DNA of 20,000 nt from an uncultured virus (IMG/VR IMGVR_UViG_3300047319_001747) (IMGVR_UViG_3300047319_001747); one strand, 5' to 3'. Shown: positions 1,063-18,153, numbered from the stretch's first letter. The notes: generated by a model from the sequence alone, not told the origin. Program-made: numbers and translations.

Positions 1063-1286
1063 CTTTACAAGTAGCTCGCATGCTCGCCGAATCACTTGCC
1101 ATGCAACTAGCGACATGCCCTCAGCAGTTGTGCGATGATGCCTTTCGAGAAGGCATGCATCCCCGACTGGTGGCGGGCCTGCGTGCGGCGCGAAATGCAT
1201 TCACGGAATACGTTGGGGAAAATGATGCAGAGGAGCTCATGAAATCAATTCACGAAGAAGTGGCAGCGGGGTTGAAGGAGTTATGA
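1059..1286 (+). CDS. Hypothetical protein, 75 aa
   Basis: GTG 1059 overlaps the upstream TGA and its stop overlaps the downstream ATG; fills the gap exactly; lower GC than neighbours. Confidence 0.6.
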   Translation: MTLQVARMLAESLAMQLATCPQQLCDDAFREGMHPRLVAGLRAARNAFTEYVGENDAEELMKSIHEEVAAGLKEL

Positions 1287-1813
1287 TCACGTTCCTCGTT
1301 CCGACGATCGGCCGCAAGTCGTTGATCGATACGCTGCGCTCCATCGAGACGCTGCCAGGCGACGAGATCCTCGTCGTCGGCGGCAGCAACCCGGTCTGCT
1401 CCGACCCGCGCGTGCGCTGCATCCCCTGCAAGCCAGGAGGCGACTGGGGACACACCGAACGCAACTACGCGACGCCGATGGCGAAGGGCCAGTACATCGC
1501 GCACATCGACGATGACGACATCTATGCGCCGGGGCACCGCGCGCTGATGCAAGACGCTATCCAACGGGCGCCAGGTCAGCCGGTGCTGTTCCGGATGCAG
1601 TATCCAAGTGGGGCAACATTGTGGCAAGAAAAAGTCCTTCGGTGTGGGAATGTTGGGACGCCGATGTTCTTGATCCCGAACCAACCCGAGAAGCTTGGAA
1701 CGTGGAGATCGTTCGTCGGAGGTGACTTCGTCTTCCTTGAAGAGTCGAAGTGGGCGCCGGAGGAGTTCGTGTGGCGCGAAGAAGTCGTCGCGCTGCTGGG
1801 GCATAACGTATGA
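1283..1813 (+). CDS. Glycosyltransferase family 2 (GT-A), 176 aa
   Basis: AAGGAG RBS; 'ITFLVPT', 'EILVV', 'GHTERN...AKGQYIAHIDDDD' classical GT2 N-terminal pattern. Confidence 0.85.
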   Translation: MITFLVPTIGRKSLIDTLRSIETLPGDEILVVGGSNPVCSDPRVRCIPCKPGGDWGHTERNYATPMAKGQYIAHIDDDDIYAPGHRALMQDAIQRAPGQPVLFRMQYPSGATLWQEKVLRCGNVGTPMFLIPNQPEKLGTWRSFVGGDFVFLEESKWAPEEFVWREEVVALLGHNV

Positions 1814-2043
1814 TCATCGGCTTCAATGAACCAGCGCCGATCGGTACCATCACGCGCATCGACATCATCAAGGGTGAGGAGTACTACACAGATGTGCCTG
1901 TCATGGTCATGCGAGCAGCGACTGCTGAAGAGTGGCTCGCCGATGCAGTGGACCGCTATGGCGAGAAGGAGGGGAGAGCTATCCTAGCAGAACGACTGGC
2001 TCAGTTTCCGAATGCCGTGTTTTACGACGTGAGCATTGATTAG
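1810..2043 (+). CDS. Hypothetical protein, 77 aa
   Basis: ATGA overlap with upstream GT2; fills the gap to the GT4 gene. Confidence 0.6.
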   Translation: MIIGFNEPAPIGTITRIDIIKGEEYYTDVPVMVMRAATAEEWLADAVDRYGEKEGRAILAERLAQFPNAVFYDVSID

Positions 2044-2059
2044 CGTGGGGCTAATGACT

Positions 2060-3265
2060 ATGAAAAATCTCCTCTGGATCGGCGACGCAGGCGTTCCCAG
2101 CGGGTTCGCGCTCGCGACGCACAAGACCCTCGACGTACTGAGGGAGCACTACAACGTGACGGTGCTGGGCATCAACTACCGTGGCGACCCGCACACGTAT
2201 CCCTATCCCATCTACGCGGCGGCGACCGAGGGCGATTCGGTCGGCTACGGGCGGATCATTTGGATGTGTGACGTCGTGAAGCCAGACGTCATCGTGCTGC
2301 AGAACGACCCCTGGCTGATTCCGGGGTATCTGCAGCGACTGCGTCAGTTCCCCGAGTTCCGCAACATCCCGGTCGTCGCGTCGATTCCGGTCGACGGCAA
2401 GAACCAGAACGGCACGCAGCACCTCAACGGCCTCGCGATGGCCATCTTCTGGACCGACTTCGGGCTGAAGGAGGCGCGGCGAGGCGGCTACACGGGACCG
2501 GCGGTGGTCATCCCGCTCGGCGTGGACCTCGACACCTACTACCCGGTCGACAAGCGCGAGGCGCGGCTGGCGCGCAAGCTCGACTTCGTGGTCGACAAGT
2601 TCATCGTCGGCAACGTCAACCGCAACCAGCCGCGCAAGCGGTGGGACCTGACGATCAAGTACTTCGCCGAGTGGACGAAGGCCGAGAAGATCTTCGACGC
2701 GCACCTCTACCTCCACACGGCGCCGACGGGCGACGTTGGCTGTGACGTCAAGCAGCTGATGAAATACTATGGCGTCTACGACCGCCTGATCCACCGGGAA
2801 CCGGCCATCTGGTATGGCGACGAAGACACCATGATGGCCGTAACCTACAACTGCTTTGACGTTCAGGTCTCGACGACGCAGGGCGAGGGCTTCGGCCTGA
2901 CAACGTTCGAGGGGATGGCCTGCGCCGTGCCGCAGATCGTGCCTGACTGGGCGGCACTCGGCGAGCTGACGCCCGGCGCGGCGGCCCTTGTCCCGTGCCT
3001 GTCGACGGCCATCGGCTGGCCGTATCTGAACGTCATCGGCGGTATCCCGGACCAGGAACTGTTCACGCGGCAGCTCAGCCAGATGTACCACGACAAGGAG
3101 TACCGTGCCGAGGTCGGCCGTCGCGGCTTCCACCGGGCCAACGAGGACCGGTTCCGGTGGTCCAATATCGGCCGTCGGTGGCTGGACGTGCTGGCGGGTG
3201 TCGAGCAGAAGCACAACGAGATCACGTGGCAGGACCTCGGGCGACCCGAGGAGGTGACAACGTGA
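2060..3265 (+). CDS. Glycosyltransferase family 4 (GT-B fold)
   Basis: 'LLWIGDAGVPSGFA' N-terminus, 'IPLGVD', 'NVNRNQPRKRWD', and 'EGFGLTTFEGMACAVPQI' (EX7E motif). Start ATG 2060 or 2054. Confidence 0.9.
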   Translation: MKNLLWIGDAGVPSGFALATHKTLDVLREHYNVTVLGINYRGDPHTYPYPIYAAATEGDSVGYGRIIWMCDVVKPDVIVLQNDPWLIPGYLQRLRQFPEFRNIPVVASIPVDGKNQNGTQHLNGLAMAIFWTDFGLKEARRGGYTGPAVVIPLGVDLDTYYPVDKREARLARKLDFVVDKFIVGNVNRNQPRKRWDLTIKYFAEWTKAEKIFDAHLYLHTAPTGDVGCDVKQLMKYYGVYDRLIHREPAIWYGDEDTMMAVTYNCFDVQVSTTQGEGFGLTTFEGMACAVPQIVPDWAALGELTPGAAALVPCLSTAIGWPYLNVIGGIPDQELFTRQLSQMYHDKEYRAEVGRRGFHRANEDRFRWSNIGRRWLDVLAGVEQKHNEITWQDLGRPEEVTT

Positions 3266-5662: not shown

Positions 5663-8600
5663 ATGGAAATAGGGTCGCTGACAGGCGAGATTACCCTCGA
5701 AGACAAGGCGACAGAGGTCATCCTTCAGTTCTCGGACAAGGTCAAGAAGTTCGCCGAGGAGATGGAAGGTGTGTCCGGTGCCATCGCCATCGGCTTCGGC
5801 GTCGTCACGGCCGCCGTCCTCGCGACGTCGGCGAGCATCGTGGCGCTCGGCGAGAAGGGGTCGACGCTGCTCGGCGTTGAGACGGCGTTCGACCACCTAG
5901 CCGAAGCGGCCGGGACGACGGGTGACAACCTGCGCGGCGCGCTGTCCGAAGGGCTGAAGGGCACCGTCGACGACATGGACGCCATGCAGTCCGTGCAACG
6001 TCTGCTCGTATCAGGGTTCAAGCTCACCGACGAACAGGCCACGACCCTCGCGCAGACGGCGCGCGAGCTTGGGAAGGCGTTCGGCAAGGATGCGGCCGAA
6101 GAGTTAGACATCCTGAGCACGTCGCTGGCCACCGGGAGGACGCGGGCGCTGACGATGCAGGGCGTCGTCATCGACGTGAAGAAGGGTGAAGAGGAGTTCG
6201 CCAAGTCCATCGGAACGACTGTCGATCAGCTGAACGCCGAGGGCCTGCTCGAGGGCAAGCGCATCGCCATCATGGAAGGCGTCAAGGGCAAGCGTGACGC
6301 CCTTGGCATCTCCGAACTCAGCTTCAAGGAGATGGTGCAGAATACGAACGTCGCCCTCGAAGAGTGGGGCGAGAAGCTGGCCAAGTCCGTCGCGTCATCA
6401 CCTGACGTGCTGAGGGCGTACGAGACGATGAGGGACGCGGTCATCAAGACGTTCGGCGGCGACTCTCAGGACCTGATGGCGACGATGACCGGGTGGATCA
6501 ACGCCTTCGCCAAGAGCGTCACGGAGCACGGGCCGGCCATCGTCAGTACGCTGGGCAACGTGGTCGACGGTATCAAGGGCATTTACGATTTCCTGTTGGA
6601 GCACGAGGACGACATCAAGACCCTCGCCGTCGGCGTTGCCGCGTATACCGCTGCATGGGCGGCGCTTGAAATCGGTGGGACGATCGTCACCGGCGTCATT
6701 GCCGGCATCAAGGCGATCACGCTCGCGGCGGAGATACTGGAGGCTGGGTCGTTGGTCGGCCTCATCACGCCAATCGGCCTCGTCGCGGCTGCTGTGGCCG
6801 GCCTCGCCATCGCCGTCTACAAGTTCAACCAGGAGATGAAGAACATCCAGAAGCCCAGCACCACGGGCGACCTGCTCGCCAGCCTCAAGACGGAGGCGGG
6901 CGCGAAGGCGATGACCATCGACGAGTTCAACGCGAAGCTGGCCGCGAAGCCGCAGCTGGAAGCTGGAAAGACACTCACGATTCCTGGCATCATGGCGCCT
7001 GGCGCTGGACTTCCAGATAACGCGCAGTATGTCAAGGACCAGGCCGAGAAGATCGAGAAGGCCACGACCGACAGCATCGCAAAGACGGAAGGCCTCTGGG
7101 ACCAGTACTTCATCACCATCGACAAGATGAGCGGCGACACGGTGGGCGCGCAGATCGGGGCGATCGACCGCAAGCGAGAGGCTGAGATCGCCTCGCTCGA
7201 CAAGACGAAGAAGTACAACCAGGACTATCAGAATCAGCTGCAGGCGATCGAGGCCGTGGCGGCGGTCAACCGTGCTGCCATCTTTGAGGACTTGTATAGG
7301 AAGGACGTGGCAGCTGCGGATCAAGCGGTGAAGGACCGCTTGCAGCTGGCCTATGACGAGGGAATAAAAGAAGCCGACCTACGGAAGTCTGGAAGCGATA
7401 AAGTCATCGATGCATGGAAGAAGACCCAAGACGATTTGGTAGCGATCAATGCCACGGGGCTGGACAAACAGCTGCTCAACATCAACAAATCGGCCGACGA
7501 CCAGATCGCCGTCATCAAGGAGATGACGGACAAGGAACCAGGATATACGCAGGCGGCGGTCGACAACGTGAACGCCATTCGGCAGCAGCAGATTGATGCC
7601 CTGTACGTCGACAACGCCGCGCTCCAGGACAACTCGGCCGAGACGCTCCAGGCCATCGCCGACAAGGCGTACACCACGTACCTGGCGATGGCGGCAGCTG
7701 GCGGCGAGTACTCCGAGGTGACGATCAAGCACTTCAAGGAGGTCGCCGACGCGGCGCAGCGCACGGCCAGCGGCATCGGGAAGAGCCTCGGGTCGGACCT
7801 GTTCGACGCCCTGAAGGGCGTCCCGCAGACCCTCGCCGATGCCTTCAAGGGCGGCGGCAGCCTGCTCGGCGCCGCTGAGTCACTCGGCTCGCAGTTTGGC
7901 GCCATCTTCGGCAAGCACATCGGCACCGCCATCGGCGGCGCGCTCTCGATCGCTGGTCCCATCGGCGCGGCCATCGGCTCGCTCGTCGGCCCGCTCATCG
8001 ACATGTTCGCAAAGCTCGGCGGCCCGTCGAAGGACGAGCTGGCCGCTCGCTCCACCTTCGCCGACTTCCAGAAGCAGTTCGGCACGCTGCCGCAAACGAT
8101 CGACAAGGTTGGCGCCGCGTACGCCCGCATGGGCCTCACGGGGACCGACGCGCAGCGCGACCTGCAGCGCGCGCTCGACGCCACGCACGTGAGCGCGGCG
8201 GCCGAGGCGTCGGCCCTCGACACCATCAACCTCGTACTCGAGGCCGACAAGCAGCGGACGGCGGACCTGGCCTCGGCCACGCAGGACGTCATCACGGCCG
8301 GGCAGGGGTTCTCCGGGCCGCTGCCCGACGCCATCAAGGTGACCATCGACCAGATCATGAACGCCTCCGGCGCCACCGACGCGATGAAGGCGGCGCTCCA
8401 AGGCGTGCTCGACAAGGCGAAGCCCGACTACGAGCAGCTCACGAAGCTGGCCGAGACCTACGGCCTCTCGCTCCAGGACCTCGGGCCGAAGTTCGAGCAG
8501 GCGAACGTCGAGGGGCGCGCGAAGAAGATCTTCGACGACTTCACGGCCCTCACGCAGGCGGGCGGCGACGTCGGCGGCGTGCTGAGCCACATGAAGGACC

Positions 8601-9184
8601 AGATCAGCGGCCTGGTCGACGACTCGATGAAGTTCGGCACCGCCATCCCGAAGAACATGAAGCCGCTGATCGACGAGCTGGTCCGGTCCGGGCAGCTGAC
8701 CGACGAGCAGGGCAACAAGATCGAGGACACGTCGAAGATCACGTTCGAGGATACGCCGCTCGACAAGAGCTTGACCGGGCTGAACGCCGCCATCGATCAC
8801 CTGTCGCAGGTCTTGGGCCTCGTGCCGGGACAGCTCGACAAGATCGGCAGCGCCGCCGACCGACTCCCCGACAATCCATACAAGGACTGGGTCGCACCGC
8901 CTCCGCCGGCGAGCCAGGACGGGCAAGCGTACGCGCAAGGTGGCGTCGTGTACGCGGCCGCTGGCATGACGGTCGGCGGACCGCGCGGCACCGACACGGT
9001 CCCTGCGTGGCTGACGCCAGGTGAACGCGTGACGTCGTTGAACCAACAGCGGCAGGACTCCGAAGCGATGGCGGAGCTGCAGATGGAGGTCGCGGGCCTC
9101 CGTCGTGACATGAACTCCAAGTTCCCGCGCGCGATCGGCGCGGCGGTCGGCACGGCGCTGGTCGGCGTGAGGATCGGCTCGTAA
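5663..9184 (+). CDS. Tape measure protein, 1173 aa
   Basis: Long Ala/Gly-rich helical protein after the chaperones; N-terminal 'EIGSLTGEITL', hydrophobic segments, C-terminal 'YAQGGVV...GPRGTDTVPAWLTPGERV' motif common in TMPs. Confidence 0.93.
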   Translation: MEIGSLTGEITLEDKATEVILQFSDKVKKFAEEMEGVSGAIAIGFGVVTAAVLATSASIVALGEKGSTLLGVETAFDHLAEAAGTTGDNLRGALSEGLKGTVDDMDAMQSVQRLLVSGFKLTDEQATTLAQTARELGKAFGKDAAEELDILSTSLATGRTRALTMQGVVIDVKKGEEEFAKSIGTTVDQLNAEGLLEGKRIAIMEGVKGKRDALGISELSFKEMVQNTNVALEEWGEKLAKSVASSPDVLRAYETMRDAVIKTFGGDSQDLMATMTGWINAFAKSVTEHGPAIVSTLGNVVDGIKGIYDFLLEHEDDIKTLAVGVAAYTAAWAALEIGGTIVTGVIAGIKAITLAAEILEAGSLVGLITPIGLVAAAVAGLAIAVYKFNQEMKNIQKPSTTGDLLASLKTEAGAKAMTIDEFNAKLAAKPQLEAGKTLTIPGIMAPGAGLPDNAQYVKDQAEKIEKATTDSIAKTEGLWDQYFITIDKMSGDTVGAQIGAIDRKREAEIASLDKTKKYNQDYQNQLQAIEAVAAVNRAAIFEDLYRKDVAAADQAVKDRLQLAYDEGIKEADLRKSGSDKVIDAWKKTQDDLVAINATGLDKQLLNINKSADDQIAVIKEMTDKEPGYTQAAVDNVNAIRQQQIDALYVDNAALQDNSAETLQAIADKAYTTYLAMAAAGGEYSEVTIKHFKEVADAAQRTASGIGKSLGSDLFDALKGVPQTLADAFKGGGSLLGAAESLGSQFGAIFGKHIGTAIGGALSIAGPIGAAIGSLVGPLIDMFAKLGGPSKDELAARSTFADFQKQFGTLPQTIDKVGAAYARMGLTGTDAQRDLQRALDATHVSAAAEASALDTINLVLEADKQRTADLASATQDVITAGQGFSGPLPDAIKVTIDQIMNASGATDAMKAALQGVLDKAKPDYEQLTKLAETYGLSLQDLGPKFEQANVEGRAKKIFDDFTALTQAGGDVGGVLSHMKDQISGLVDDSMKFGTAIPKNMKPLIDELVRSGQLTDEQGNKIEDTSKITFEDTPLDKSLTGLNAAIDHLSQVLGLVPGQLDKIGSAADRLPDNPYKDWVAPPPPASQDGQAYAQGGVVYAAAGMTVGGPRGTDTVPAWLTPGERVTSLNQQRQDSEAMAELQMEVAGLRRDMNSKFPRAIGAAVGTALVGVRIGS

Positions 9185-12100
9185 TGTTTGCACACGTCTA
9201 CTTCCCCGGCGCCTACTTCCCGGGAGTCTACTTCCCGCTGGAAGCCACCTCGTCGACCGCGACGCTGATCCCGAGCACCGCCGAGGCGCTCGTCGGCAAC
9301 ACGATTCAGGTGACCGCGAGCGGCGGACCTGGACACGTGCTCGACAGGGTGGCGCTCTACCGGGTCGGCACGCCGGACTACATCGACTACGCGGCCATCG
9401 TCCTCGGCGACACGCCCGTCGCCTACTGGCGGCTCGGGGAGCCGCTCGGATCTGCGACCATCGTGGACGCGAGCGGCCACGGCTACGTCGGCACGGTGAA
9501 CGGCACGGTGATCTTCGGGCAGCCGGGCCTGCAGCAGGACAACGACACGGCGGCGGCCTTCAGCGGCATCGACGGCAACGGCGTGACGCTCGATACGCCG
9601 ACGCCCGTCTCGGCGCACTTCACCGTCGAGGCCTGGGTAAAGCGCATCGGCGACAGCACGAGCAGCAGCGCGTACGAGTACATCTGGAGTTCCGGCCTCA
9701 TCGTCAACAACGCGGTCGAGGTGGCACTGTTCGACGCCGGGGCCACGACGACCCTGCAGTTCTTCATCAACTTCACGACCCTGACGCCGGGGTGGATCGA
9801 CACGGGCTACGTCGTCACCGACGGCGAGTGGTTCCACGTCGCAGTCACGTGGGACGGCGTCCGGGTCATCGTCTACGTCAACGGGAACGCCGTCTACTCG
9901 TCGGCGGCCTTCACCGGACTGACGCTCTACAGCGTCGGCTCGACCTCCGGTACGCGCGGCATCGGCTCGACGGAGGGCCTCGCCGGGCCGATCTGGGGCA
10001 TCCTCGACGAGGTGGCGCTGTACGACTACGCGCTGTCGAGCGGACAGATCAACGAGCACCTCGGCGCCGTCGTGCCGCAGATGGTGTCGTGGCAGTACAT
10101 GAACGGGACGCAAACGCCACCCGCCATCGGCCTCACCGACGCGACGCTGTCGTTCGTCATGGCGTACGGCGGCTTCTTCGAGTTCCGGTGGCTGTTCGCG
10201 GGCGGCTGGTCCCGCATCGCGACCAGCATCACGGTCTCGGTCCACTGGACGAGCGGCGTCGTGGAGATGGAGTTCAACGGGCGCGGCGGTGGCTGGACGC
10301 CAGTGACCGACTGGATGCGGAACCCTGGCATCACGTGGCACCGGGGGCTGCCAGGCACCAACATCACCGACCTCGTGGCCGACATCGGGACGCTCCACCT
10401 GACGCTCGACAACAGCGACCGGAACAGCGCTGGGCTGATGGGCTACTACAGCCCGGACAACGTCAACTGTCGCAAGGGCTTTGACCTCTACATTGGCCTG
10501 CGGTACACCGTTGCCGGCATTCGGCGATTCACGGGCACCATCTCGGCGATCGACGTCGTGCCGGGGACGAAGGGCTCGCGCAGGGTTGCGGTCGAGGCCG
10601 AGAGCTGGATGGGCACGGCCTCGCGTACGCGCCTCTCGGGCCTCATCGGCGTCCTCGTGAACAACCGCGGCGACCAGGTGTTTCAGGCGATCATCGACTC
10701 GCTGACGCCCTCGACGAAGCCGCTGGCGGTCGAGAAGGACGTCAGCTCGGACATCTTCCCCTACACGCTCGACCGCGTACGCGACGAACAGACGCTGCTG
10801 CGGGACGAGATCTACAGACTGTGCCTGAGCGGCCTGGACAAGTGCTGGGAGCGCGGCGACGGGACCGTCGTCTATGAGAGTCGATCGCGTCGGGTGACGA
10901 CGTCGAGCAGCGCGGACAACTTTCCCGACAACCATGGCTTCACGCCGACGCGCGACCGCAACGGGATCGTCAATCAGGTGCAGTCCACCGTCCACCCGAG
11001 GCTCCCCTCGGCGGTCAGCGTCGTGATGTACTCTCTGAACCAGCCGTTGTCGCTGGTGCCGGGGACGCCGATCACGGTGCTCGGCGGCTGGAACGACCCA
11101 GCCAACCCGAACGTGCGCCTCGGCGCCGTCAATCTTGACGCGCTGGTGGCGACGACCGACTACACGGCGAACTCGCTGGCCGACGGGTCGGGTACCGATC
11201 TCACGAGCCTCCTCGTCGTCACGACTGGGCTGTCCGGCAACGCGACCACGTTCACGATTACGTTGGGCGGCGCGACGCCAGGGTTCCTGACCAAGCTGCA
11301 GCAGCGCGGCAAGCCGCTCTATGACTACGGGCCGGTCGTCATGACCTACGACAACCCGGCGAGCATCGACAAGAGTGGCATGGCGTTCATGTCCCTGGAC
11401 ATGGCCTACCAAGCGGACCCGCGGTTCGGGCTGGAGGCAGCGCAGTACGTTATCTTCACCCTGTCAGGGCTGCAGACGAAGGTCTCGGGCTTTCGCCGCA
11501 CCTATGGATTCTTGAACGTCGCCGAGATGGCCCGCACGGTGGCACGCGAGGTAAGCGACCGCATCACGATCACCGACGAGCTGACTGGCCTCAGCAAGAT
11601 CTTCTTCATCAACGCCATCGACGAGATGGAGGTCGAAGGGCTGCTGACGACGGAGTGGCTGCTGACGCCCGCCGACAACACAGCGTTCTGGCTGCTGGAG
11701 GTCGTCGGTCGCAGCGAGCTGGACGCGACCACGCGGCTCGGCTTCGGGTTGATCGTCGGGCACACGGACGTCTTGCACGGCGACATCCATACGGACGTGG
11801 CGCACGCGGACTCTGTCCATCAAGACTCGCATACCGATGCGCACGCGGACGTCTCGCACGGTGACGACACGGGCCATACAGACATTCCGCATACCGACAC
11901 GCCGCACACGGACACGCACAGCGACGTGGCGCACGGGGACAGCCACTCGGACGTGGCGCACGTGGACTCGACGCAGACGGCGGGGTACGGCGACTATCAC
12001 GAGGACGAGGCGGCGACGGGGTTCCACTCCGACTACTGGACCGCGTCTCCAGTGACCCACGGCGATGGCGATGGCTCGAGCCACCAGGACATCCATCAGG

Positions 12101-12342
12101 ACGTGACGGTGCCGTTCTCGCACAACGACGTGGCCCACTCGGACGTGGCCCACTCGGACTCGCCGCACACCGATTCGCGGGTCATCGTCAACCACGTTGA
12201 TTCGGCGCACGGCGACGCCACGGGGCACACCGATACAGGTCACATCGACACGCACGGCGACGTTAACCACGCGGACGTCCTGCATCAGGACGCACCGCAC
12301 GACGATACGCACACGGACGCGGCGCACGGAGACATCAATTGA
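9184..12342 (+). CDS. Tail-tip / baseplate hub-like protein with LamG (concanavalin A-like) domain and C-terminal His-x-Asp repeat tract, 1052 aa
   Basis: Directly follows TMP (TAATG overlap). LamG motifs 'PVAYWRLGE', 'FTVEAWVK', 'WFHVAVTWDG', 'VYVNG', 'GILDEVALYDYALS'; minor-tail-like 'WTPVTDW...ITWHRG...GTLHLTLDNSD...YYSPDN'; HxD tract from 11761. Confidence 0.8.
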   Translation: MFAHVYFPGAYFPGVYFPLEATSSTATLIPSTAEALVGNTIQVTASGGPGHVLDRVALYRVGTPDYIDYAAIVLGDTPVAYWRLGEPLGSATIVDASGHGYVGTVNGTVIFGQPGLQQDNDTAAAFSGIDGNGVTLDTPTPVSAHFTVEAWVKRIGDSTSSSAYEYIWSSGLIVNNAVEVALFDAGATTTLQFFINFTTLTPGWIDTGYVVTDGEWFHVAVTWDGVRVIVYVNGNAVYSSAAFTGLTLYSVGSTSGTRGIGSTEGLAGPIWGILDEVALYDYALSSGQINEHLGAVVPQMVSWQYMNGTQTPPAIGLTDATLSFVMAYGGFFEFRWLFAGGWSRIATSITVSVHWTSGVVEMEFNGRGGGWTPVTDWMRNPGITWHRGLPGTNITDLVADIGTLHLTLDNSDRNSAGLMGYYSPDNVNCRKGFDLYIGLRYTVAGIRRFTGTISAIDVVPGTKGSRRVAVEAESWMGTASRTRLSGLIGVLVNNRGDQVFQAIIDSLTPSTKPLAVEKDVSSDIFPYTLDRVRDEQTLLRDEIYRLCLSGLDKCWERGDGTVVYESRSRRVTTSSSADNFPDNHGFTPTRDRNGIVNQVQSTVHPRLPSAVSVVMYSLNQPLSLVPGTPITVLGGWNDPANPNVRLGAVNLDALVATTDYTANSLADGSGTDLTSLLVVTTGLSGNATTFTITLGGATPGFLTKLQQRGKPLYDYGPVVMTYDNPASIDKSGMAFMSLDMAYQADPRFGLEAAQYVIFTLSGLQTKVSGFRRTYGFLNVAEMARTVAREVSDRITITDELTGLSKIFFINAIDEMEVEGLLTTEWLLTPADNTAFWLLEVVGRSELDATTRLGFGLIVGHTDVLHGDIHTDVAHADSVHQDSHTDAHADVSHGDDTGHTDIPHTDTPHTDTHSDVAHGDSHSDVAHVDSTQTAGYGDYHEDEAATGFHSDYWTASPVTHGDGDGSSHQDIHQDVTVPFSHNDVAHSDVAHSDSPHTDSRVIVNHVDSAHGDATGHTDTGHIDTHGDVNHADVLHQDAPHDDTHTDAAHGDIN
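11761..12339 (+). repeat. Protein-level His-x-Asp repeat array (34 HxD in 193 aa)
   Basis: Counted by hand in the translation (HTD, HGD, HAD, HQD, HSD, HVD, HED, HND, HID, HDD); every His in the tract has Asp at +2. Confidence 0.95.
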
Positions 12343-13649
12343 CGATCGAGCTGACGCCTGTCGGCGTCGCGTGCAACTTGTCATGCACATACTGCTACCA
12401 GAACCCCATGCGCGACGCGGGGAACGTCACCGTGCCGCACGACTTCGAGAAGATGAAGGCGGGGCTGGAGCGCGAGGGCGGGTCGTTCTCGGTGTTCGGC
12501 GGCGAGGCGCTGCTTACGCCGCTGCCGCTGCTGGAAGAGATCTTCGCCTACGGCCTCCAGCGCTTCGGGTCCAACGGCATCCAGACGAACGGCGCCCTCA
12601 TCACCGACGTGCACGTCGAGTTGTTCAAGCGGTACAAGGTGAACGTCGGCCTGTCGCTCGACGGGCCGGGCGAGCTGAACGACAGCCGGTGGGCGGGCTC
12701 GCTGAAGAAGACGCGCGAGGCGACGGCGCAGAGCTTCAGCGGCCTCTTTCGCCTGCTGGACGCGGGCATCGTGCCCAGCGTCATCGTGACGCTGTACCGA
12801 GGGAACGCGGTCGGCGACAAGCTGACGCAGCTGCTCGAGTGGTTCCGACTGCTCGAGGTGTACGGCGTCTACGCCGTGAGGCTGCACCTGCTGGAGGTCG
12901 AGACCGACGAGGTCCAGCAGGCGATGGCGCTGACCATCGAGGAGAACACCGCCGCGCTGCTGCGGCTCTACGAGTTCCAGGCCACGACGAAGGTCCGCTT
13001 CGACCTCTTCGGCGAGATGGCCAAGCTGCTCCTCGGCAACGACGTCGGCGCGACGTGCGTGTGGGGCGCGTGCGACCCGTACACGACGGCCGCCGTGCGC
13101 GGCGTGGACGCGGAAGGCGAGTCGTCCAACTGCGGGCGGACGAACAAAGAGGGCATCAGTTGGCAGAAGGCCCAGACGCCGGGCTACGAGCGTCAGGTGG
13201 CGCTCTACCATACGCCGCAGGCGGACTTCGGGTGTGAGGACTGTCGGTTCTTCTTCGCCTGCAAGGGCCAGTGCCCGGGCACGGCCGAAGGCGGCGACTG
13301 GCGGAACCGCAGCGAGCACTGCGGCGCGTGGATGACGCTGTTCGACCGCATCGAGGCGGACTTGATCAGCATCGGGCACGTGCCGCTGTCGCGGAACGAC
13401 GCGCTGCGGACGCAGGTCGACGCCCTGATGCTGAAGTACTGGGCGCGCGGCGAGAACCTCTCCATCACGCAGGCCGTCGCCGCCGTGCAGGCGGGCGTCG
13501 AGCCGACGATCGTCCCTCCGGCGCGCGGCCACGGCGACCACTGGGACGCGCCCGACGGCTACCGGCACGCGGACGGAGACTTTACCATTCACGGCGACCG
13601 CGGAACCACCGACATGCACGGGGACTCAGATGCCAAAAACCCTCGCTGA
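12339..13649 (+). CDS. Radical SAM/SPASM domain protein (anaerobic sulfatase maturase / peptide maturase-like), 436 aa
   Basis: CNLSCTYC (CxxxCxxC) at 12372-12395; GGE, 'IQTNG', 'SLDGP'; SPASM cysteines 'CVWGAC', 'GESSNCG', 'CEDCRFFFACKGQC' (13233-13274), 'SEHC'. TTG start overlaps the upstream TGA, with GGAGA RBS. Confidence 0.92.
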   Translation: MTIELTPVGVACNLSCTYCYQNPMRDAGNVTVPHDFEKMKAGLEREGGSFSVFGGEALLTPLPLLEEIFAYGLQRFGSNGIQTNGALITDVHVELFKRYKVNVGLSLDGPGELNDSRWAGSLKKTREATAQSFSGLFRLLDAGIVPSVIVTLYRGNAVGDKLTQLLEWFRLLEVYGVYAVRLHLLEVETDEVQQAMALTIEENTAALLRLYEFQATTKVRFDLFGEMAKLLLGNDVGATCVWGACDPYTTAAVRGVDAEGESSNCGRTNKEGISWQKAQTPGYERQVALYHTPQADFGCEDCRFFFACKGQCPGTAEGGDWRNRSEHCGAWMTLFDRIEADLISIGHVPLSRNDALRTQVDALMLKYWARGENLSITQAVAAVQAGVEPTIVPPARGHGDHWDAPDGYRHADGDFTIHGDRGTTDMHGDSDAKNPR

Positions 13650-13995
13650 CCGCCTCGTCGTCGTTCAGCAGCAGTACGCCGACCAGATCGAGATCCAAGG
13701 CTACAGCGTCGACGCGCAGACGCGGCAGATCACGCTGACGATCGTCCCGAGCCGGTTGAACGACGACGGCGTGACGCGAACCGTGCTGCCGTCGCACGCG
13801 GTGACGTTCGACGACCCGCTCGTCACGCAGACGATGGGCCTGATCGTCTCGCAGATCGTGCTGACGGTGCTGAATCAGATCGGCGCGCCCCAGCAGGTGA
13901 TCGACCGGGCGACGACGGCGATGAACAACAACCTGACGGCGACGGCGGACGTTTACTACCAAGCGACGAGGGACCAACTGTATGCCAGACTCTAG
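13630..13995 (+). CDS. Hypothetical protein, 121 aa
   Basis: Overlaps both neighbours, strong high-GC codon bias, no recognisable motif. Confidence 0.7.
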   Translation: MPKTLADRLVVVQQQYADQIEIQGYSVDAQTRQITLTIVPSRLNDDGVTRTVLPSHAVTFDDPLVTQTMGLIVSQIVLTVLNQIGAPQQVIDRATTAMNNNLTATADVYYQATRDQLYARL

Positions 13996-15151
13996 GCCGG
14001 ACTGGACGCGCATCATCTGGGCGAGCCGCGTGGCGCGCGAGGCGTGGGAGCCGCGCGTTCAGGCGATTCAACGGGCGTGGGTGCGCGTCGAAGTGGCATC
14101 GGTTGAGCGGCTGGTCCGAGCGGCGGCCCTCGTGTACGGGAAGCCGGAGACGAACCTGTCGATGCGCGAGGTCGCGCCAACCCGATGGGCCGTTGCCCGC
14201 AGCCTGGACCTTGACGTCTTCTGTCATGCCTATGAGACAGGTGACGACAATACGGTTGGGCGTCTACTTGGCTATCCTGAGTGCTGCCGCGCGTTCTTCT
14301 CGCGCACGTGGGGCGGCGCGAACGTCGACACGACGTGGGAGATGCTCGCACCGGGCCTGCGCGCGGACGGACCCGTGGAGTCGAACATCCTCGGGCGGTG
14401 GCTGGGCGTCCGCCTCGTGCCGCACCTGCCGTGCAGCTTCAACTGCACGGCGACGGTCGCGTTCGCCGAACGGCTGGCGCCGTCGTGGCCTGCCCAAGAG
14501 CTCGCCTGGGCGAAAGAGATCCTCAACTGGCCCTGCGAGTGGAACGCTCGGCACGGCATCGCCGAGGTCCGGTTCCCGGTGCTCAAGCTCTCAACCCGGA
14601 CGACCGTCTACCCAGAGAAGAGGACCATCCAGCGCCACGGGCCTGGCTGGCCGGCTGAGGCAGCCCGAGGGCTTCAGTTCCCTTACCAGAAGCCAGTAAG
14701 CCCTTTGCCTCTGGTCCGGCCCGTCCTCCAGGCTGCCATCAGGCCAGAGGACAACGGCTTCTTGACGCGGAGCGGCATGGACAGCGCGCACGAGATGATC
14801 CTGGCCGCGCTCCACGACGCGCCGCCCCGCGGCACCGTCCTGGACCTTGGCGCTGGCGACGGCCGCCTCATGCGCCGCATCGCCGCCACGTTCGCGGTCC
14901 CGGTGCAAGGCGTGGAGTCGGTGCCGCTCAAGGCGTCGAAGGACCCGCTCGTCATCTGCGACGACCTGCGCCACATGATGACCGTCGAGGGCCGGCAGCA
15001 CGTCGACACGATCGTCGTCTCGGTACGGCGCTACGAAGAGGTCCCAGGACTGGAGGCGTGGTGCCGCGCGCACGCGCGACAGGTGCTGACCTACTCCTAC
15101 GATTACCCGATGTTTACGAGCATGGAGGCGGCGTGCCTTACGTCAAGATAG
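13982..15151 (+). CDS. Two-domain protein: Cys-motif N-terminal domain (DUF483-like) fused to a class I SAM-dependent methyltransferase-like domain, 389 aa
   Basis: 'GRLLGYPECCRAFF' (about 14258-14299) and 'HLPCSFNC'; Pro-rich linker; SAM-binding motif I 'VLDLGAGDG' at 14837-14863 followed by 'VQGVE'. Confidence 0.65.
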   Translation: MPDSRPDWTRIIWASRVAREAWEPRVQAIQRAWVRVEVASVERLVRAAALVYGKPETNLSMREVAPTRWAVARSLDLDVFCHAYETGDDNTVGRLLGYPECCRAFFSRTWGGANVDTTWEMLAPGLRADGPVESNILGRWLGVRLVPHLPCSFNCTATVAFAERLAPSWPAQELAWAKEILNWPCEWNARHGIAEVRFPVLKLSTRTTVYPEKRTIQRHGPGWPAEAARGLQFPYQKPVSPLPLVRPVLQAAIRPEDNGFLTRSGMDSAHEMILAALHDAPPRGTVLDLGAGDGRLMRRIAATFAVPVQGVESVPLKASKDPLVICDDLRHMMTVEGRQHVDTIVVSVRRYEEVPGLEAWCRAHARQVLTYSYDYPMFTSMEAACLTSR

Positions 15152-15534
15152 AAACGGCGTCGACGCTGCGGTTCCCCGATGGTTCCCGGGTGACGTCGCC
15201 GCAGGCGTACCTCGGGTGGCACACGTGGCACCTCGCGGACCGCGAGGTGGCGCAGGCGTGGGCAAACGAGCAGCCCGTCCAGGCGCGCATCGAGCACGGC
15301 CGCTGGGTGACCAACTGCGCGTCGTGCGGCACGGGGATGTTCACGCACCCCGTCTGGCAGCTGGCCTGCTGCGGCGAGTGCGGCGCGGTGCACGCGACCA
15401 TCGTCGTTCCGCCGAACTGGCAGGCGATCGAGGCGGAGCTGCTCAAGCGCCCGGTCCGCGTGAACCAGAACTGGCTGCCGAACGAAACCCTCGAGACGTT
15501 GACGCGCGAGTCGCGCGCGCATGGAGTCCGCTGA
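15133..15534 (+). CDS. Zn-ribbon-containing phage tail-region protein, 133 aa
   Basis: GTG 15133 after GGAGG; 'HGRWVTNCASC...CCGEC' two CxxC pairs; C-terminal 'LLKRP...NQNWLPNETLETL'; TGATG-coupled to the fibre gene. Confidence 0.7.
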   Translation: MPYVKIETASTLRFPDGSRVTSPQAYLGWHTWHLADREVAQAWANEQPVQARIEHGRWVTNCASCGTGMFTHPVWQLACCGECGAVHATIVVPPNWQAIEAELLKRPVRVNQNWLPNETLETLTRESRAHGVR

Positions 15535-16022
15535 TGGCATGGACGACGCCCAGAACATGGGTCCCCGGCGAGCTGGTCACGGCCAGCATGATGAACATCC
15601 ACGTCCGCGACAACCTGAACTTCTTGCTCACGACGTTCGGCGTGTGGACGCCGGTCTCGTTCAACGCCGGGGACTACACGGCGACGGGCGGCGGCTGGAC
15701 GGTGACGGGCGGCATGGTGCTCCAGAACCGCTATTCCGTCATGAATAAGACCCTCTTCTGGAACGTGATGGTGCAAAATTCGACCGTCACGTCGACGCCG
15801 ACGCAGCTGCTGATCGCCGTTCCAGGTGGAGTACTCTTTTATACGACGATCAACTATAACCGCGTCGCGCGGTTAGTTGACAATGCTGTCGTCTCTGAAG
15901 GGACCGTCACGCCGGCCAGCGCTGGACAGGTCGCCATCGCGCGGAGTTCTGGCAGCGCCACGTTCGCGGCGTCGACGACGGCGACCACCGTCCAATTCTC
16001 TGCGTGGTTCGAACTTACATAA
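15534..16022 (+). CDS. Small tail fibre / receptor-binding protein, 162 aa
   Basis: ATG 15534; N-terminal 'MAWTTPRTWVPGELVTASMMNIHVRDNLNFL' is a recurrent fibre-anchoring motif; beta-rich C-terminal head ending 'VQFSAWFELT'. Confidence 0.7.
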   Translation: MAWTTPRTWVPGELVTASMMNIHVRDNLNFLLTTFGVWTPVSFNAGDYTATGGGWTVTGGMVLQNRYSVMNKTLFWNVMVQNSTVTSTPTQLLIAVPGGVLFYTTINYNRVARLVDNAVVSEGTVTPASAGQVAIARSSGSATFAASTTATTVQFSAWFELT

Positions 16023-16029
16023 GGGCCTT

Positions 16030-18153
16030 ATGAAACGCCTCCTGTATCTGCTGCTCCTCACGTCGGCCTGCGCCACCATCCCGCCCAAGCCCGTGCCACC
16101 TGGGCCTCCGGTGCCGCTGCACCTCGGGGTCGTCGGCGCGTATCACGGTCCGCTCGATGACGCCACCCTGAAGACGATGGCGGGGTCCTCGGACCTGACG
16201 CTGCGCGCGGCGGTGACGAGTGTCGAGCAGGCGCGGGCGATTGCGGCGTCCGTCCAGGCGTACCCGACGCTCCATATCCTCTGGCTGGTCGAGACGGCGA
16301 ACGGGCCGCTGCTGGAGGCGTTGCTGCCGGTCCTGACGGCTCCGGCGCCGAATCCGACGGCGGGCATCGAGCTGGGGAACGAACTGGATCTGGCGGGGTT
16401 GACGTCGGCGCAATTCGGGGCGTGGATTCGGGCGGCGCATTCCTCCCTCCGGGCGAACGGGTACACCGGCCGGATCATCTCGGGCGGCATCTTTACCACC
16501 CAGCCGGAACAACTGCGGTGGCTGACGCAGGCGGGGGTCCCGACGTGGCCGACGGACATCGTCGTCGGGCTGCACCGGTACGGCGGACCGGACGATCCGG
16601 TGTCCGGCTATCGGACGCGTGACGACGAGACGAACGCGATCCTGGCGGCGGCGGCGGGGCATGCGATCGCGTTTACGGAGTTCGGGTACCCGACGTTCAC
16701 CCCGGCGGATGAGGCGTGGGCGGCGAACGCAGTGCTCACCGATCTGAACTGGTTCCGGAAGGCGCGGGCGGAACTGGCGACGGAGTACCAGTATACGGAC
16801 GGCCCCGGCACCGGGAACCTGGATCACTTCGGCGTGCGCGCGTTCGACGGGCGGTGGAAGCCGGTGTCCGTGTCCATTGGGATTCCGATGGCGACGGGGC
16901 CTCCGGCGTCCGCCACGGTCGCGGCCGACCTCGTCGCCTGCAAGACACCCTTCCTGGATAACTATTGCGACGGTCCGGCGGGCGCGGTGTTCGCGGTCGA
17001 GACGGCGCCCAACGTCTGGCGGACGTATCACGGGGACGGCAACGGCTACGCGTGGGCGGCGGACCTGCCCAACGTCCCTGACAGCCGCATCACCATCTCG
17101 GCGCCCGGCTACTTCACGCTCGGGCCGCTCCACCTCGACATCAACCATCAGCCGCCCATCCCGACGGACCTCGTCGCGGTCAACGCGGCGGGCGTGCACA
17201 ACGCGTGGCCACTGCAAGCCACGCCGCCGCCGTTCCCGGCACCACCCACGCGACAGTCCGTCCTCAACGTCCACATCACCGGGCAGGGCCTGACCGTCGA
17301 CACGCAGCAGTACGGGACGCTGCCGTGGTGGGAAGCGGCGCTGACCTACCTGACGCCCACCGACCGCAACGCGGTCTATGCGGCGAAGCACGCGTCGACG
17401 GCGTGGCCGGGCGGCGACACGCACGCCATCATCGCGGTCCCGAGCGGGCGGGCGCTCTACGACGAGCCGAACCAGCCGTACAGTGCTGATCGCTTCCCGC
17501 CGCTGGACTGGACGCACGGCGGCACGGCGATGGTGCCCGAGTTCGATCAGTTGGTCATCGAGGTGATCCAGCACGGCTTCACGCCGATGATCTTCCTCGA
17601 CGAGACGATGGACACGTCCTACAAGACGCTGCCCGTCGTCTTGGACGCGCTGCAGCACTCGACGCTCGGCGACCTGACGCCCTACGTACTGGTCCTGCCA
17701 GGGTGGGACGGCGTGTTCTATGGCTGGGAGCCGTCGCACGAGGTGATTCCCAAGTGGGCGGCGAACGCCCGCGCCCTCTGTCCGCGGTGCTACCTCGGCA
17801 TCGAGCACAACGTCGGCCACATCCCGCTCGGCGAAGGCCCGTCGGACTGGACATCGACTGGGCTGATGAAGGACTTCGACGTCCTCTTCAGCGAGTTCTG
17901 GGACGGCATCTTCGACGACACCGTCTACCAGGTCGCCGGCCGCACCATCCGGCCCTACAACCGTCCGGCGGATCAGGTGGGCGACCCCAACCCGCCGATG
18001 TACATGCAGGGCAACGTGCGCGACCCGAACGCGCAGCCCGCGTGCTTCTTCGAGTTCGGCATGTACGGCTGGGTGCGGTCGACGTCATCGGCGGCGTCGA
18101 TTATCGCGTGGCGGCAGCGCTTCAAGGACATCGGCTATACGTGTGGAGGATGA
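16030..18153 (+). CDS. Predicted lipoprotein with a clan GH-A (GH5/GH39-like) glycoside hydrolase domain and further domains, 707 aa
   Basis: ATG 16030 gives the signal peptide MKRLLYLLLLTSA|C (lipobox Cys14); acid/base 'ELGNE' (GNE at 16375-16383), 'GLHRY', nucleophile 'FTEFGY' (TEFG at 16675-16686), 'HFGV...DGRWKP'; Pro-rich linkers. Confidence 0.7.
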   Translation: MKRLLYLLLLTSACATIPPKPVPPGPPVPLHLGVVGAYHGPLDDATLKTMAGSSDLTLRAAVTSVEQARAIAASVQAYPTLHILWLVETANGPLLEALLPVLTAPAPNPTAGIELGNELDLAGLTSAQFGAWIRAAHSSLRANGYTGRIISGGIFTTQPEQLRWLTQAGVPTWPTDIVVGLHRYGGPDDPVSGYRTRDDETNAILAAAAGHAIAFTEFGYPTFTPADEAWAANAVLTDLNWFRKARAELATEYQYTDGPGTGNLDHFGVRAFDGRWKPVSVSIGIPMATGPPASATVAADLVACKTPFLDNYCDGPAGAVFAVETAPNVWRTYHGDGNGYAWAADLPNVPDSRITISAPGYFTLGPLHLDINHQPPIPTDLVAVNAAGVHNAWPLQATPPPFPAPPTRQSVLNVHITGQGLTVDTQQYGTLPWWEAALTYLTPTDRNAVYAAKHASTAWPGGDTHAIIAVPSGRALYDEPNQPYSADRFPPLDWTHGGTAMVPEFDQLVIEVIQHGFTPMIFLDETMDTSYKTLPVVLDALQHSTLGDLTPYVLVLPGWDGVFYGWEPSHEVIPKWAANARALCPRCYLGIEHNVGHIPLGEGPSDWTSTGLMKDFDVLFSEFWDGIFDDTVYQVAGRTIRPYNRPADQVGDPNPPMYMQGNVRDPNAQPACFFEFGMYGWVRSTSSAASIIAWRQRFKDIGYTCGG

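Follow-up and report, generated by a model that had tools for sequence, protein, structure and literature searches.

Among SPASM-type radical SAM (rSAM) enzymes, anSME and QhpD modify entire proteins that have yet to be exported, and the links made by QhpD run to side-chain carbons of Asp or Glu. Triceptide maturation follows a W1-X2-X3 logic that includes His-first motifs, such as HTK in the case of HtkB (PMC11499958). The rSAM enzymes HxsB and HxsC mature the His-x-Ser (HxS) repeat protein HxsA, with a change of +8 Da on SHRSS, and HxsC forms a complex with HxsD (PMC13128918). The phage fibre protein T4 gp37 coordinates seven iron ions through HxH motifs, and comparable motifs are reported from other phage fibres (PMC11705849). 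A 2024 preprint (bioRxiv 10.1101/2024.08.14.607894; PMC11437467) described an 'rSAM module' in the Thermus phages Cumys and phiMa and proposed a role in DNA modification. It already noted DUF483 proteins fused with a methyltransferase or an rSAM domain, as well as rSAM and DUF483 homologues adjoining deazapurine DNA-modification genes in some cyanobacteria. The available portion of that text mentions histidine zero times and says nothing of arrays of His-x-Asp (HxD) triplets.

Here we analysed a 20,000-nt stretch of DNA (hereafter, the window) from an uncultivated tailed phage. It has the components of the Thermus phage module, i.e., an rSAM homologue, an adjoining DUF483 protein and a third protein encoded 5' of the rSAM.

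Anatomy of the locus

The third protein is a 1052-aa tail protein (positions 9184–12342, plus strand, as are all features given here up to position 15151), encoded directly 3' of a tape-measure-like gene (1173 aa; 5663–9184; phrog_9570 tail length tape measure protein, E = 7.9e-5). It has a Laminin_G_3 domain (aa 132–289, E = 1.3e-18) and weakly matches the virion structural protein phrog_8510. The C-terminal array (11761–12333), the proposed substrate, comprises 34 HxD triplets confined to residues 860–1050, with zero before residue 860, and each of the 34 His in the final 198 residues opens a triplet. Shuffling these 198 residues 2000 times gave 6.5 ± 2.1 HxD, with a maximum of 14. Most triplets are spaced by 5 (17 gaps) or 4 (8 gaps), and the middle residue varies (T9, G7, S5, Q4, A3 and others). 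Tandem Repeats Finder returned just four short rows of 2–3 copies each, so it is at the protein level that the pattern is maintained, and it does not reflect a recent DNA repeat. The array region resembles the array of gene 13 of Cumys.

The stop codon of the tail protein (TGA, 12340–12342) overlaps the TTG start (12339–12341) of the rSAM gene (436 aa; 12339–13649), and a GGAG ribosome-binding-like site (12328–12331) was read 7 nt 5' of the TTG. The Cx3Cx2C motif (C12, C16 and C19) precedes the first Met (M24), thus the enzyme needs the TTG start. The database gene call P0013 (413 aa) would begin at M24, dropping the motif. As the motif begins at residue 12, the enzyme lacks an N-terminal peptide-recognition domain. 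The Pfam Radical_SAM model (PF04055) scored 45.2 bits against a cut-off of 29.5.

The SPASM subgroup is defined by a C-terminal seven-Cys pattern, Cx9-15Gx4C ... Cx2Cx5Cx3C ... C. By motif reading and alignment of the Cx2Cx5Cx3C block with anSME, the window enzyme has the full pattern (C240, C245-x14-G-x4-C265, C299-x2-C302-x5-C308-x3-C312, C328). All eight of these Cys, and likewise the rSAM cluster Cys, are invariant across 34 homologues, and the Pfam SPASM model gave no match to the window enzyme at E ≤ 0.01. All 34 family members match models of protein- or peptide-modifying SPASM enzymes (anSME, AmcB, DynA, GrrM/OscB, YhhB, XyeB, FxsB, QhpD), with TIGR03942 (anSME) matching 34/34 and TIGR03906 (QhpD) 32/34. 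The solved chains nearest in sequence to the window enzyme are anSME (PDB 4k36, E = 2.5e-18) and the ChlB rSAM domain (E = 8e-13). Its scores were far under every curated NCBIfam cut-off, including DynA (69 vs 450 bits), AmcB (64.2 vs 425), TIGR03942 (60.9 vs 349.45), GrrM/OscB (48 vs 310), QhpD (47 vs 453), YhhB (46.4 vs 445), XyeB (33.1 vs 450) and FxsB (28.9 vs 370), and the family can thus be assigned no more closely than 'SPASM peptide/protein maturase-like'. Judged from these scores, the enzyme falls in no curated family. The HxsB and HxsC models were absent among the best 25 NCBIfam matches of the window enzyme and its family. By sequence reading, the enzyme has a C-terminal tail of its own with five HxD triplets (about aa 398–429; 13530–13625). 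At least two HxD occur in the last 70 aa of 90 of the 120 closest homologues, and a dense run (≥8 in 60 aa) lies inside the enzyme polypeptide in 14 of 150 representatives.

Downstream, ORF 13982–15151 encodes a probable DUF483 domain (aa 1–245; 13982–14716) fused to a class I SAM-dependent methyltransferase domain (aa 250–387; 14729–15151). The DUF483 assignment rests on a Pfam match (PF04467, E = 6e-4) of 20.2 bits, under the gathering cut-off of 25, on homologues in locus L019 that score 30.2 bits, and on the nearest Atlas clusters, which carry DUF483. The domain was modelled by AF2 with a pLDDT of 94.7, and its invariant residues are C101, C102, H148, C151 and C155. The methyltransferase domain has a VLDLGAGDG motif and matched methyltransferases by Foldseek and VIA (best 3e8s_A; Z 13.1, rmsd 3.3, 132 aligned).

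The array of 34 HxD, the overlap of its gene with a radical SAM/SPASM gene and the downstream methyltransferase fusion had all been described in the initial annotation and are borne out here. That annotation also listed an overlapping hypothetical gene. This 121-aa ORF (13630–13995) does overlap both the rSAM and the DUF483-methyltransferase genes, but it had no family match and no tblastn match in all other fetched loci, and is thus a window-specific ORFan outside the conserved cassette. The proposed setting between tail-tip and fibre genes found no support here: the 5' gene is tape-measure-like and family searches of the downstream ORFs 15216–16022 and 15877–18153 gave no match.

Conservation of the gene trio

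Among the viral loci, 52 of 74 had a dense array (≥8 HxD per 60 aa, not counting the rSAM ORF itself) beside the rSAM, and so did 57 of the 80 bacterial loci; these counts come from related loci and do not represent independent events. The 838 kb searched up to 3 kb from the module contained 116 arrays, and the 1004 kb searched farther off contained four. At this threshold, no dense array was detected in 22/74 viral and 23/80 bacterial rSAM loci; truncated contigs account for many of them, as do arrays that are less dense or differ in motif (HxN, or PHSD with long spacers), though this does not cover every case. In a reverse search by DNA pattern alone, rSAM was present on 16 of 19 contigs with credible arrays. 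Ten of the 16 were new to the forward set, and five of their rSAMs are merely 27–32% identical to that of the window. The initial annotation had named two outcomes that would speak against it, i.e., enzyme homologues mostly without HxD neighbours and HxD proteins commonly without the enzyme, and both searches came out the opposite way. The three array contigs without rSAM are L193 (a collagen-like fibre array with glycosyltransferases; record 41% complete), L194 (a doubtful array of low complexity) and L197 (record rated 100% complete).

Across 121 arrays, Asp is at +2 of 3564 of 3709 His (96%), a count biased somewhat toward the motif because HxD positions had been used to delimit the regions. 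The middle position is unconstrained (G, T, S, V, A and others). The arrays have up to 93 triplets, end a median of 6 aa before the C-terminus and contain 18.5% His, 20% Asp and 0.1% Cys. Their carriers are ORFs of 70 to 2667 aa, the large ones structural, lectin or Tat-exported proteins.

The Thermus phages phiMa, phiLo and Cumys encode rSAMs 49–52% identical to that of the window, and all three have arrays. Those of Cumys_13 (54 HxD) and phiMa_29 (53 HxD) are encoded directly 5' of the rSAM, and those of phiLo_137 (72 HxD) and phiLo_136 (55 HxD) lie 3.4–4.8 kb from it. The initial annotation knew of no phage structural protein of this kind; the gene trio was in fact already in print, although the available text does not mention its HxD arrays (PMC11437467).

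The DUF483 protein was present in 66/74 viral and 74/80 bacterial rSAM loci, and at least 29 of 50 long representatives have it as a fusion with the rSAM. Models of the rSAM-DUF483 complex gave ipSAE values of 0.85, 0.85 and 0.87 (best control 0.00). In calibration, 116 of 157 solved complexes attained this mark, as did 2 of 215 mismatched pairs; these counts hold only roughly here, as alignments made for this analysis were used. The runs agreed in at least 91% of contacts, with a partner pLDDT of at least 87. The DUF483 protein is no accessory but the near-constant partner of the rSAM, with frequent fusions and a predicted interface between the two. Array protein, rSAM and DUF483 form a conserved trio that recurs across many phages and bacteria. 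The cassette is thus not confined to phages, and bacterial copies stand among cellular genes, with Tat-like signals in 22 of 63 array carriers. The Tat pathway exports folded, cofactor-loaded proteins. The initial reading of a phage-encoded maturase coupled to an HxD structural protein therefore needs widening to bacteria.

These patterns bear on the DNA-modification role proposed by the Thermus phage authors, under which the array protein would be a mere neighbour. The deazapurine genes reported beside some cyanobacterial homologues speak for it (PMC11437467), yet we consider it very improbable. The array-enzyme linkage holds in both search directions and in phages as well as bacteria, the family-level matches are all to protein- or peptide-modifying SPASM enzymes, and in both the window and Cumys the module lies among the tail genes. 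No DNA-modification genes were found beside the module in the six bacterial loci examined.

The arrays could instead be mainly metal-binding needles of trimeric fibres, a His/Asp counterpart of the iron sites of T4 gp37 (PMC11705849), with the rSAM-DUF483 pair leaving the triplets unmodified and serving another target or a loading or assembly role. The His and Asp content of the arrays, the Tat-like signals of bacterial carriers and the enzyme-free array of L193 are consistent with this, as is the fusion of DUF364 ('putative heavy-metal chelation') to DUF483 in 3 of 17 sampled cassettes. It would, however, leave unexplained why a Cys-invariant rSAM is translationally coupled to the arrays and has an HxD tail of its own, and we consider it improbable as the main function. 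Nor does metal binding exclude a covalent change, as copper binding by noursin requires a His crosslink (PMC10206099).

Proposed modification of the arrays

Given the conserved trio and its anatomy, the strictness of the motif, the gene fusions and the interface predicted between rSAM and DUF483, we suggest that the HxD array is quite likely the substrate of the rSAM, and that rSAM and DUF483 (here fused to a methyltransferase) probably act on such arrays as a two-subunit maturase. In the window, the enzyme, being translationally coupled to the tail protein, would act on the triplets while the fresh protein is still in the cytoplasm and virions have yet to assemble. As to chemistry, we favour, tentatively and by analogy, a triceptide-like His-Asp crosslink. 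The rSAM would cleave SAM reductively and abstract a hydrogen atom from C-beta of the Asp side chain, and this carbon would then bond with the imidazole of the His at position −2, as in three-residue cyclophanes, where an aromatic ring is joined to a C-beta. A series of small rings would result, to which the methyltransferase may add methyl groups. Such an array could form a stiff, heat- and protease-resistant fibre tip, possibly pre-organised for metal binding. If true, a chemical modification of HxD triplets would be new for a virus particle protein. The maturase coupled to an HxD structural protein, as initially annotated, is thus upheld in its genetic linkage, in both search directions; its chemistry we infer, with the cut-offs of the curated triceptide, anSME and Hxs models unreached.

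Other chemistry on the same arrays, which we hold to be rather unlikely, might be epimerisation to D-residues, a +C/−4H change as in HxsA, methylation-linked (C- or N-) crosslinks made with the help of the fused methyltransferase, or a His N-to-C link. The nearest functional precedent, the His-x-Ser repeats, gave +8 Da and not −2 Da (PMC13128918), and the window enzyme reaches the cut-off of no triceptide model. Of 139 window-type cassettes, 53 have a methyltransferase joined to DUF483, as do 10 of 17 sampled cassettes of other types, so that a methyl-dependent step appears to be common. Methylation cannot be the core step, however, because DUF483 occurs without a methyltransferase in 34 of the 139, Cumys included. 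The strict pairing of His at i with Asp at i+2 around a free middle residue is the signature to be expected of a two-residue link, as opposed to a single-residue change.

Comparison with known systems

The predicted His-Asp crosslink may be compared with the products of the triceptide maturases HtkB and HaaB. These rSAM enzymes act on repeated W1-X2-X3 motifs that have His first and any residue in the middle, and they make the link to the C-beta of the third residue (PMC11499958). The window likewise has repeated aromatic-X-X motifs (34 HxD) adjoining the enzyme gene, the motif across the 121 arrays fits the W1-X2-X3 logic, and the weak HMM matches include AmcB, GrrM/OscB, YhhB, XyeB and FxsB. 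The differences are the scores far under these cut-offs, the substrate (a small leader-core precursor there, the C-terminus of a large protein here, 1052 aa in the window), the missing N-terminal recognition domain, the obligate DUF483 partner and a chemistry that is predicted here.

The HXS antiphage system shares His-x-small-residue repeats, rSAM maturation, a partner protein and an exported mature protein. It serves the host as a defence and comprises five HxS repeats, two rSAMs, HxsD and a peptidoglycan-binding effector (PMC13128918). In place of its four components HxsA, HxsB, HxsC and HxsD, the window has one rSAM, a DUF483 partner and tens of HxD triplets in a phage-side cassette.

For anSME and QhpD, the likeness lies in the best solved-structure sequence match (anSME, 4k36) and in the match of both models to the family, against which stand scores far under their cut-offs. 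Thioether or formylglycine chemistry on Cys is excluded, since the arrays are almost Cys-free.

The fibre tip of T4 gp37 (PMC11705849) also has recurring His-x-residue triplets, which are likely arranged along a trimer axis, but these need no modifying enzyme, whereas the HxD arrays are far longer and genetically tied to an rSAM.

The Thermus phage 'rSAM module' has three genes in identical order in the tail region, with an unknown protein 5' and DUF483 3' of the rSAM, which in Cumys and phiMa is 50–52% identical to that of the window. The difference is that this upstream protein is now shown to be an HxD array, which in the window is fused to a 1052-aa tail protein, with DUF483 fused to a methyltransferase.

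An HxD array protein and the genes around it

The window belongs to a 48.8-kb IMG/VR record estimated to be 43% complete (CheckV), and all the genes relevant here are on the plus strand. Three glycosyltransferase-like genes (10-3265; GT2-like at 10-1062 and 1283-1813, GT4/GT1-like at 2036-3265) sit just 5' of the head-tail connector and tail genes, a position which hints that virion proteins are glycosylated. Genes of the head-tail connector, major tail and tail-assembly-chaperone types come next, followed by a tape-measure-like gene (5663-9184) and the gene for a 1052-aa protein (9184-12342; Laminin_G_3 domain at residues 132-289). The 1052-aa protein has 34 His-x-Asp (HxD) triplets, all in its last 198 residues and none elsewhere, and every one of the 34 histidines in this tail starts a triplet. 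Shuffling the tail (n = 2000) gave 6.5 ± 2.1 triplets, with a maximum of 14, vs 34 in the real sequence. The DNA encoding the array in the window is not a recent tandem repeat.

The TGA stop of the array gene (12340-12342) overlaps a TTG codon (12339-12341) that is preceded by GGAG at 12328-12331 and opens a radical SAM/SPASM reading frame of 436 aa (hereafter, rSAM; 12339-13649). The TTG must be the real start, since the Cx3Cx2C motif (C12, C16, C19) precedes the first Met; the public gene call (P0013, 413 aa) starts at Met24 and so loses the motif, which the TTG start restores. Next, a 121-aa ORF (13630-13995) is wedged between rSAM and the following gene and overlaps both. The latter (13982-15151) encodes a 389-aa protein with a DUF483-like region in its N-terminal 245 residues and a class I methyltransferase as its C-terminal domain. 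The initial annotation had reported the 34 triplets, the stop/TTG overlap, the radical SAM/SPASM gene, the overlapping ORF and the methyltransferase fusion, and all of these were confirmed in place.

The 121-aa ORF had no family match, and none of the other fetched loci held a homologue, so that it was seen only in the window and was rejected as a member of the cassette. Further downstream, an ORF at 15216-16022 without a family match may encode a small tail protein; its likely true start is an internal Met (MAWTTPRTWVPGELVTASMMN...), and the 5' part of the ORF is rich in Arg and seems to be either non-coding or in the wrong frame. A 758-aa ORF (15877-18153), also without a family match, has an internal Met followed by a lipoprotein-like signal (MKRLLYLLLLTSAC), so its true start is probably near 16030. 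Megablast of 9184-15151 against phage records gave zero matches.

Conservation of the enzyme and its association with arrays

The radical SAM/SPASM enzyme is intact, with a complete SPASM-type cysteine pattern that is invariant in 34 homologues. All 34 aligned members match NCBIfam models of peptide- or protein-modifying SPASM enzymes, including anSME (best E 1.3e-26), AmcB, DynA, GrrM/OscB, YhhB, PapB, XyeB and FxsB, and 32 match the QhpD model, with no score near a curated NCBIfam cut-off (the best for the window enzyme was DynA, 69 bits vs 450). By sequence, the nearest solved chains are anSME (E 2.5e-18) and the radical SAM domain of ChlB (E 8e-13). The window enzyme has no room for an N-terminal recognition domain. 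Among 8000 candidates scored, the family has 2238 proteins at E <= 1e-20, and an exhaustive search at E <= 1e-30 gave 305 clusters at 50% identity.

Many of the enzymes have HxD triplets of their own, five in the case of the window rSAM. For 90 of the 120 nearest homologues, the last 70 residues hold at least two such triplets, vs a mean of 0.34 in residues 1-350, and a dense run inside the enzyme polypeptide itself was seen for 14 of 150 cluster representatives. This tail appears substrate-like and could be either self-modified or a docking element. In two viral loci of a clade with mixed HxN/HxD arrays (L064:9339-9734 and L047:9295-9687), a small ORF with two HADHVD motifs is located between rSAM and the DUF483 gene, and looks as if the HxD tail of the enzyme had turned into a separate gene.

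The initial annotation had tied the enzyme to HxD arrays, and we profiled this association in both directions. An alignment of 34 rSAM members (A1) retrieved 74 loci from viruses and 80 of 210 from bacterial or archaeal genomes, and these loci were then searched in six frames; a scan of the genome contigs with a single protein found no relative. Dense arrays, i.e., at least 8 HxD per 60 aa in an ORF other than rSAM, were detected in 52 of the 74 viral loci, all upstream and on the same strand, and in 34 cases no more than 150 nt separate the end of the array from the start of rSAM. Among the genome loci 57 of 80 had a dense array (5' of rSAM in 34, 3' of it in 21, and confined to the other strand in 3). 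In total, 116 arrays were within 3 kb of the module (838 kb) and four were farther away (1004 kb), these four being genes of the Thermus phage phiLo and of a single locus that has several arrays. Contigs cut just 5' of rSAM, mixed HxD/HxN arrays of lower density (nine viral loci), and variants such as PHSD with long spacers account for some, but not all, of the loci in which no dense array was seen.

In the reverse direction, a DNA pattern of four HxD at a fixed period of five, which misses irregular arrays, was found in at least 125 stretches of the viral collection, and 79 loci were read. After 51 loci without an HxD-dense ORF and five with only ORFs shorter than 150 aa (L167, L202, L206, L224 and L230) were dropped, there were 19 contigs with credible arrays, of which 16 encode rSAM (15 within the locus, plus L163, where the first 65-odd residues are at the contig end). 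Ten of these 16 were outside the forward set, and in five of the ten the enzyme is only 27-32% identical to that of the window. The three contigs without rSAM are L193 (record 41% complete), in which the array of a collagen-like fibre is followed by glycosyltransferase genes in place of rSAM; L197 (record rated 100% complete), which has PHAD/PHTD pentapeptide repeats; and L194, whose array is doubtful low complexity. Both outcomes that the initial annotation had named as refuting the link were thus looked for, and neither refuted it, as most enzymes have array neighbours and most arrays have the enzyme.

The trio of array protein, rSAM and DUF483 protein is translationally coupled and widely conserved, and its arrays follow a strict H-x-D code. 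In 121 arrays, Asp is at +2 of His in 3564 of 3709 cases (96%), a share that gains slightly from the use of HxD positions to define the array regions. The middle position is free (G, T, S, V, A and others), the commonest spacing is 5, Cys accounts for 0.1%, and the arrays end a median of 6 residues from the C-terminus. An array of this kind could plausibly be a structural metal binder, by analogy to the HxH iron sites of T4 gp37 (PMC11705849), and such a role is compatible with modification of the array.

The carrier proteins differ between viruses and bacteria. Among 47 distinct carriers from viruses, 27 are short proteins that start with a triple GSxW[IV] repeat at the N-terminus, and a simple rule called no Tat-like signal in any of the 47. 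By the same rule, a twin-arginine-like signal precedes the array in 22 of 63 distinct carriers from bacteria, and the GSxW repeat is absent from all 63. These sequence features suggest that the bacterial array proteins may be exported after cytoplasmic maturation. Array ORFs with such signals include those located 3' of DUF483 in L105, L095, L149, L157 and L099. Pfam matches of 35 large carriers were Laminin_G_3 (n = 3), Phage-tail_3 (n = 1), tectonin/tachylectin lectin (n = 3), FAD-binding (n = 2) and a weak CLZ (n = 1), and 25 had no match. Three Myxococcales loci (L116, L117 and L121) have carriers of ~1350-1420 aa with tachylectin, tectonin and DUF7910 domains, and the carrier of L116 adjoins a CHAT-ricin lectin protein. 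For the six bacterial loci examined, an origin as prophages was rejected, as their flanks are ordinary cellular genes, and so the cassette has a range that extends beyond phages.

The cassette is also present in cultured phages of Thermus thermophilus, i.e., phiMa, Cumys and phiLo, whose rSAM proteins are 49-52% identical over 95-99% of the query (tblastn). In Cumys and phiMa the array genes (Cumys_13, 343 aa, 54 HxD; phiMa_29, 342 aa, 53 HxD) are directly 5' of rSAM and the DUF483 gene is directly 3' of it. The array of the window tail protein matched that of Cumys_13, its sole match in the phage database. In phiLo (L003, 5815-6944 and 12810-15407) the arrays (phiLo_137, 72 HxD; phiLo_136, 55 HxD) are 3.4-4.8 kb away on the opposite strand, and IS605-type transposase genes occupy the place of the array gene directly upstream of rSAM. 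A 2024 preprint presents the trio as an unexplained 'rSAM module' (bioRxiv 10.1101/2024.08.14.607894). The proposal made there for the Thermus module, DNA modification, fits poorly.

The DUF483 partner and its predicted interface with the enzyme

Among the viral loci 66 of 74 encode a DUF483 homologue, as do 74 of the 80 genome loci, and it is usually within ~50 nt downstream of rSAM. The two are often fused, in at least 29 of 50 representatives of at least 560 aa and in several genome loci. Of 139 DUF483 genes, 53 have the methyltransferase of the window type, 34 consist of DUF483 only, that of Cumys being an example, and 52 end in a different C-terminal part; a sample of 17 of the last group comprised 10 diverged methyltransferases, three DUF364 domains and four without an extra match. 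The DUF364 fusions, in bacterial loci without dense arrays (L097:3130-5004, L101:9243-11054 and L141:9238-11001), bear the annotation 'putative heavy-metal chelation'.

The DUF483 domain of the window was modelled with a pLDDT of 94.7. Foldseek against the PDB gave no match at E <= 0.001, and a wide VIA search gave as its best match a protein of unknown function that is not convincing (2guk_B, Z 5.0, rmsd 3.5, 88 aligned); the comparison with NleE by VIA gave Z 3.0. Structure searches with the full-length model found only methyltransferases, matching the C-terminal domain. Five residues of DUF483 are invariant (C101, C102, H148, C151 and C155), suggesting a possible metal or cluster site.

A complex of rSAM residues 1-390 with the DUF483 domain was predicted with ipSAE of 0.85, 0.85 and 0.87 (best control, 0.00), with a contact agreement of at least 91% between runs and a partner pLDDT of at least 87. 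In the calibration of the tool, 116 of 157 solved complexes attained the ipSAE mark, as did 2 of 215 mismatched pairs; this calibration is only a rough guide here because alignments made for this analysis were used. In the predicted interface, the SPASM region (248, 261-298 and 320-323) faces DUF483 residues 5-19, 190-213 and 228-238, including residues invariant in both families. To our knowledge there is no solved complex resembling this pair, which makes it unlikely that the model scored well by reproducing a known structure.

Possible chemistry and comparison with known maturases

We infer that the rSAM-DUF483 pair would modify the HxD triplets while the protein is still in the cytoplasm, ahead of assembly or Tat export. 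It is possible, though we would stop short of calling it probable, that phage particles have covalent rings installed by radical SAM chemistry, with a two-subunit rSAM-DUF483 maturase stapling each HxD triplet of a fibre tip (34 in the window protein and as many as 93 in relatives) so that a series of three-residue macrocycles results. Chemistry typical of RiPPs would then act at protein scale on the receptor-binding organelle of the virion, and with the same pair maturing Tat-exported bacterial proteins it would represent a widespread, undescribed class of protein modification.

Neither HxD arrays with radical SAM enzymes nor virion proteins matured by such enzymes were found in open-access papers and bioRxiv. 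The known targets of radical SAM/SPASM maturases are small antibiotic-like peptides and a few proteins, i.e., sulfatases, QHNDH and, as a recent addition, the defence effector HxsA. Should the cassette modify HxD arrays, this would be the first case of such chemistry on a structural protein of a virus. It would also account for the so far unexplained Thermus-phage module and define a large family (305 clusters) with an obligate partner that has no known fold. As Cumys and phiMa are in culture, the system is directly testable. It might also provide enzymes for the stapling of long repeat proteins, which would be useful to protein engineers and in studies of how phage fibres gain stability and bind metals.

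The formation of a His-Asp ring in each triplet is favoured by analogy, as H(i) and D(i+2) fit the aromatic-to-C-beta logic of triceptides, and we hold it as a tentative reading. Triceptide motifs that start with His are known, given that HtkB links His-C2 to Lys-C-beta on HTK (PMC11499958). Other chemistry on the array by the rSAM-DUF483 pair is nearly as likely as the ring, and has a precedent in the HxS-repeat defence protein HxsA, whose maturation by radical SAM enzymes was reported in 2026 with a mass change of +8 Da (PMC13128918).
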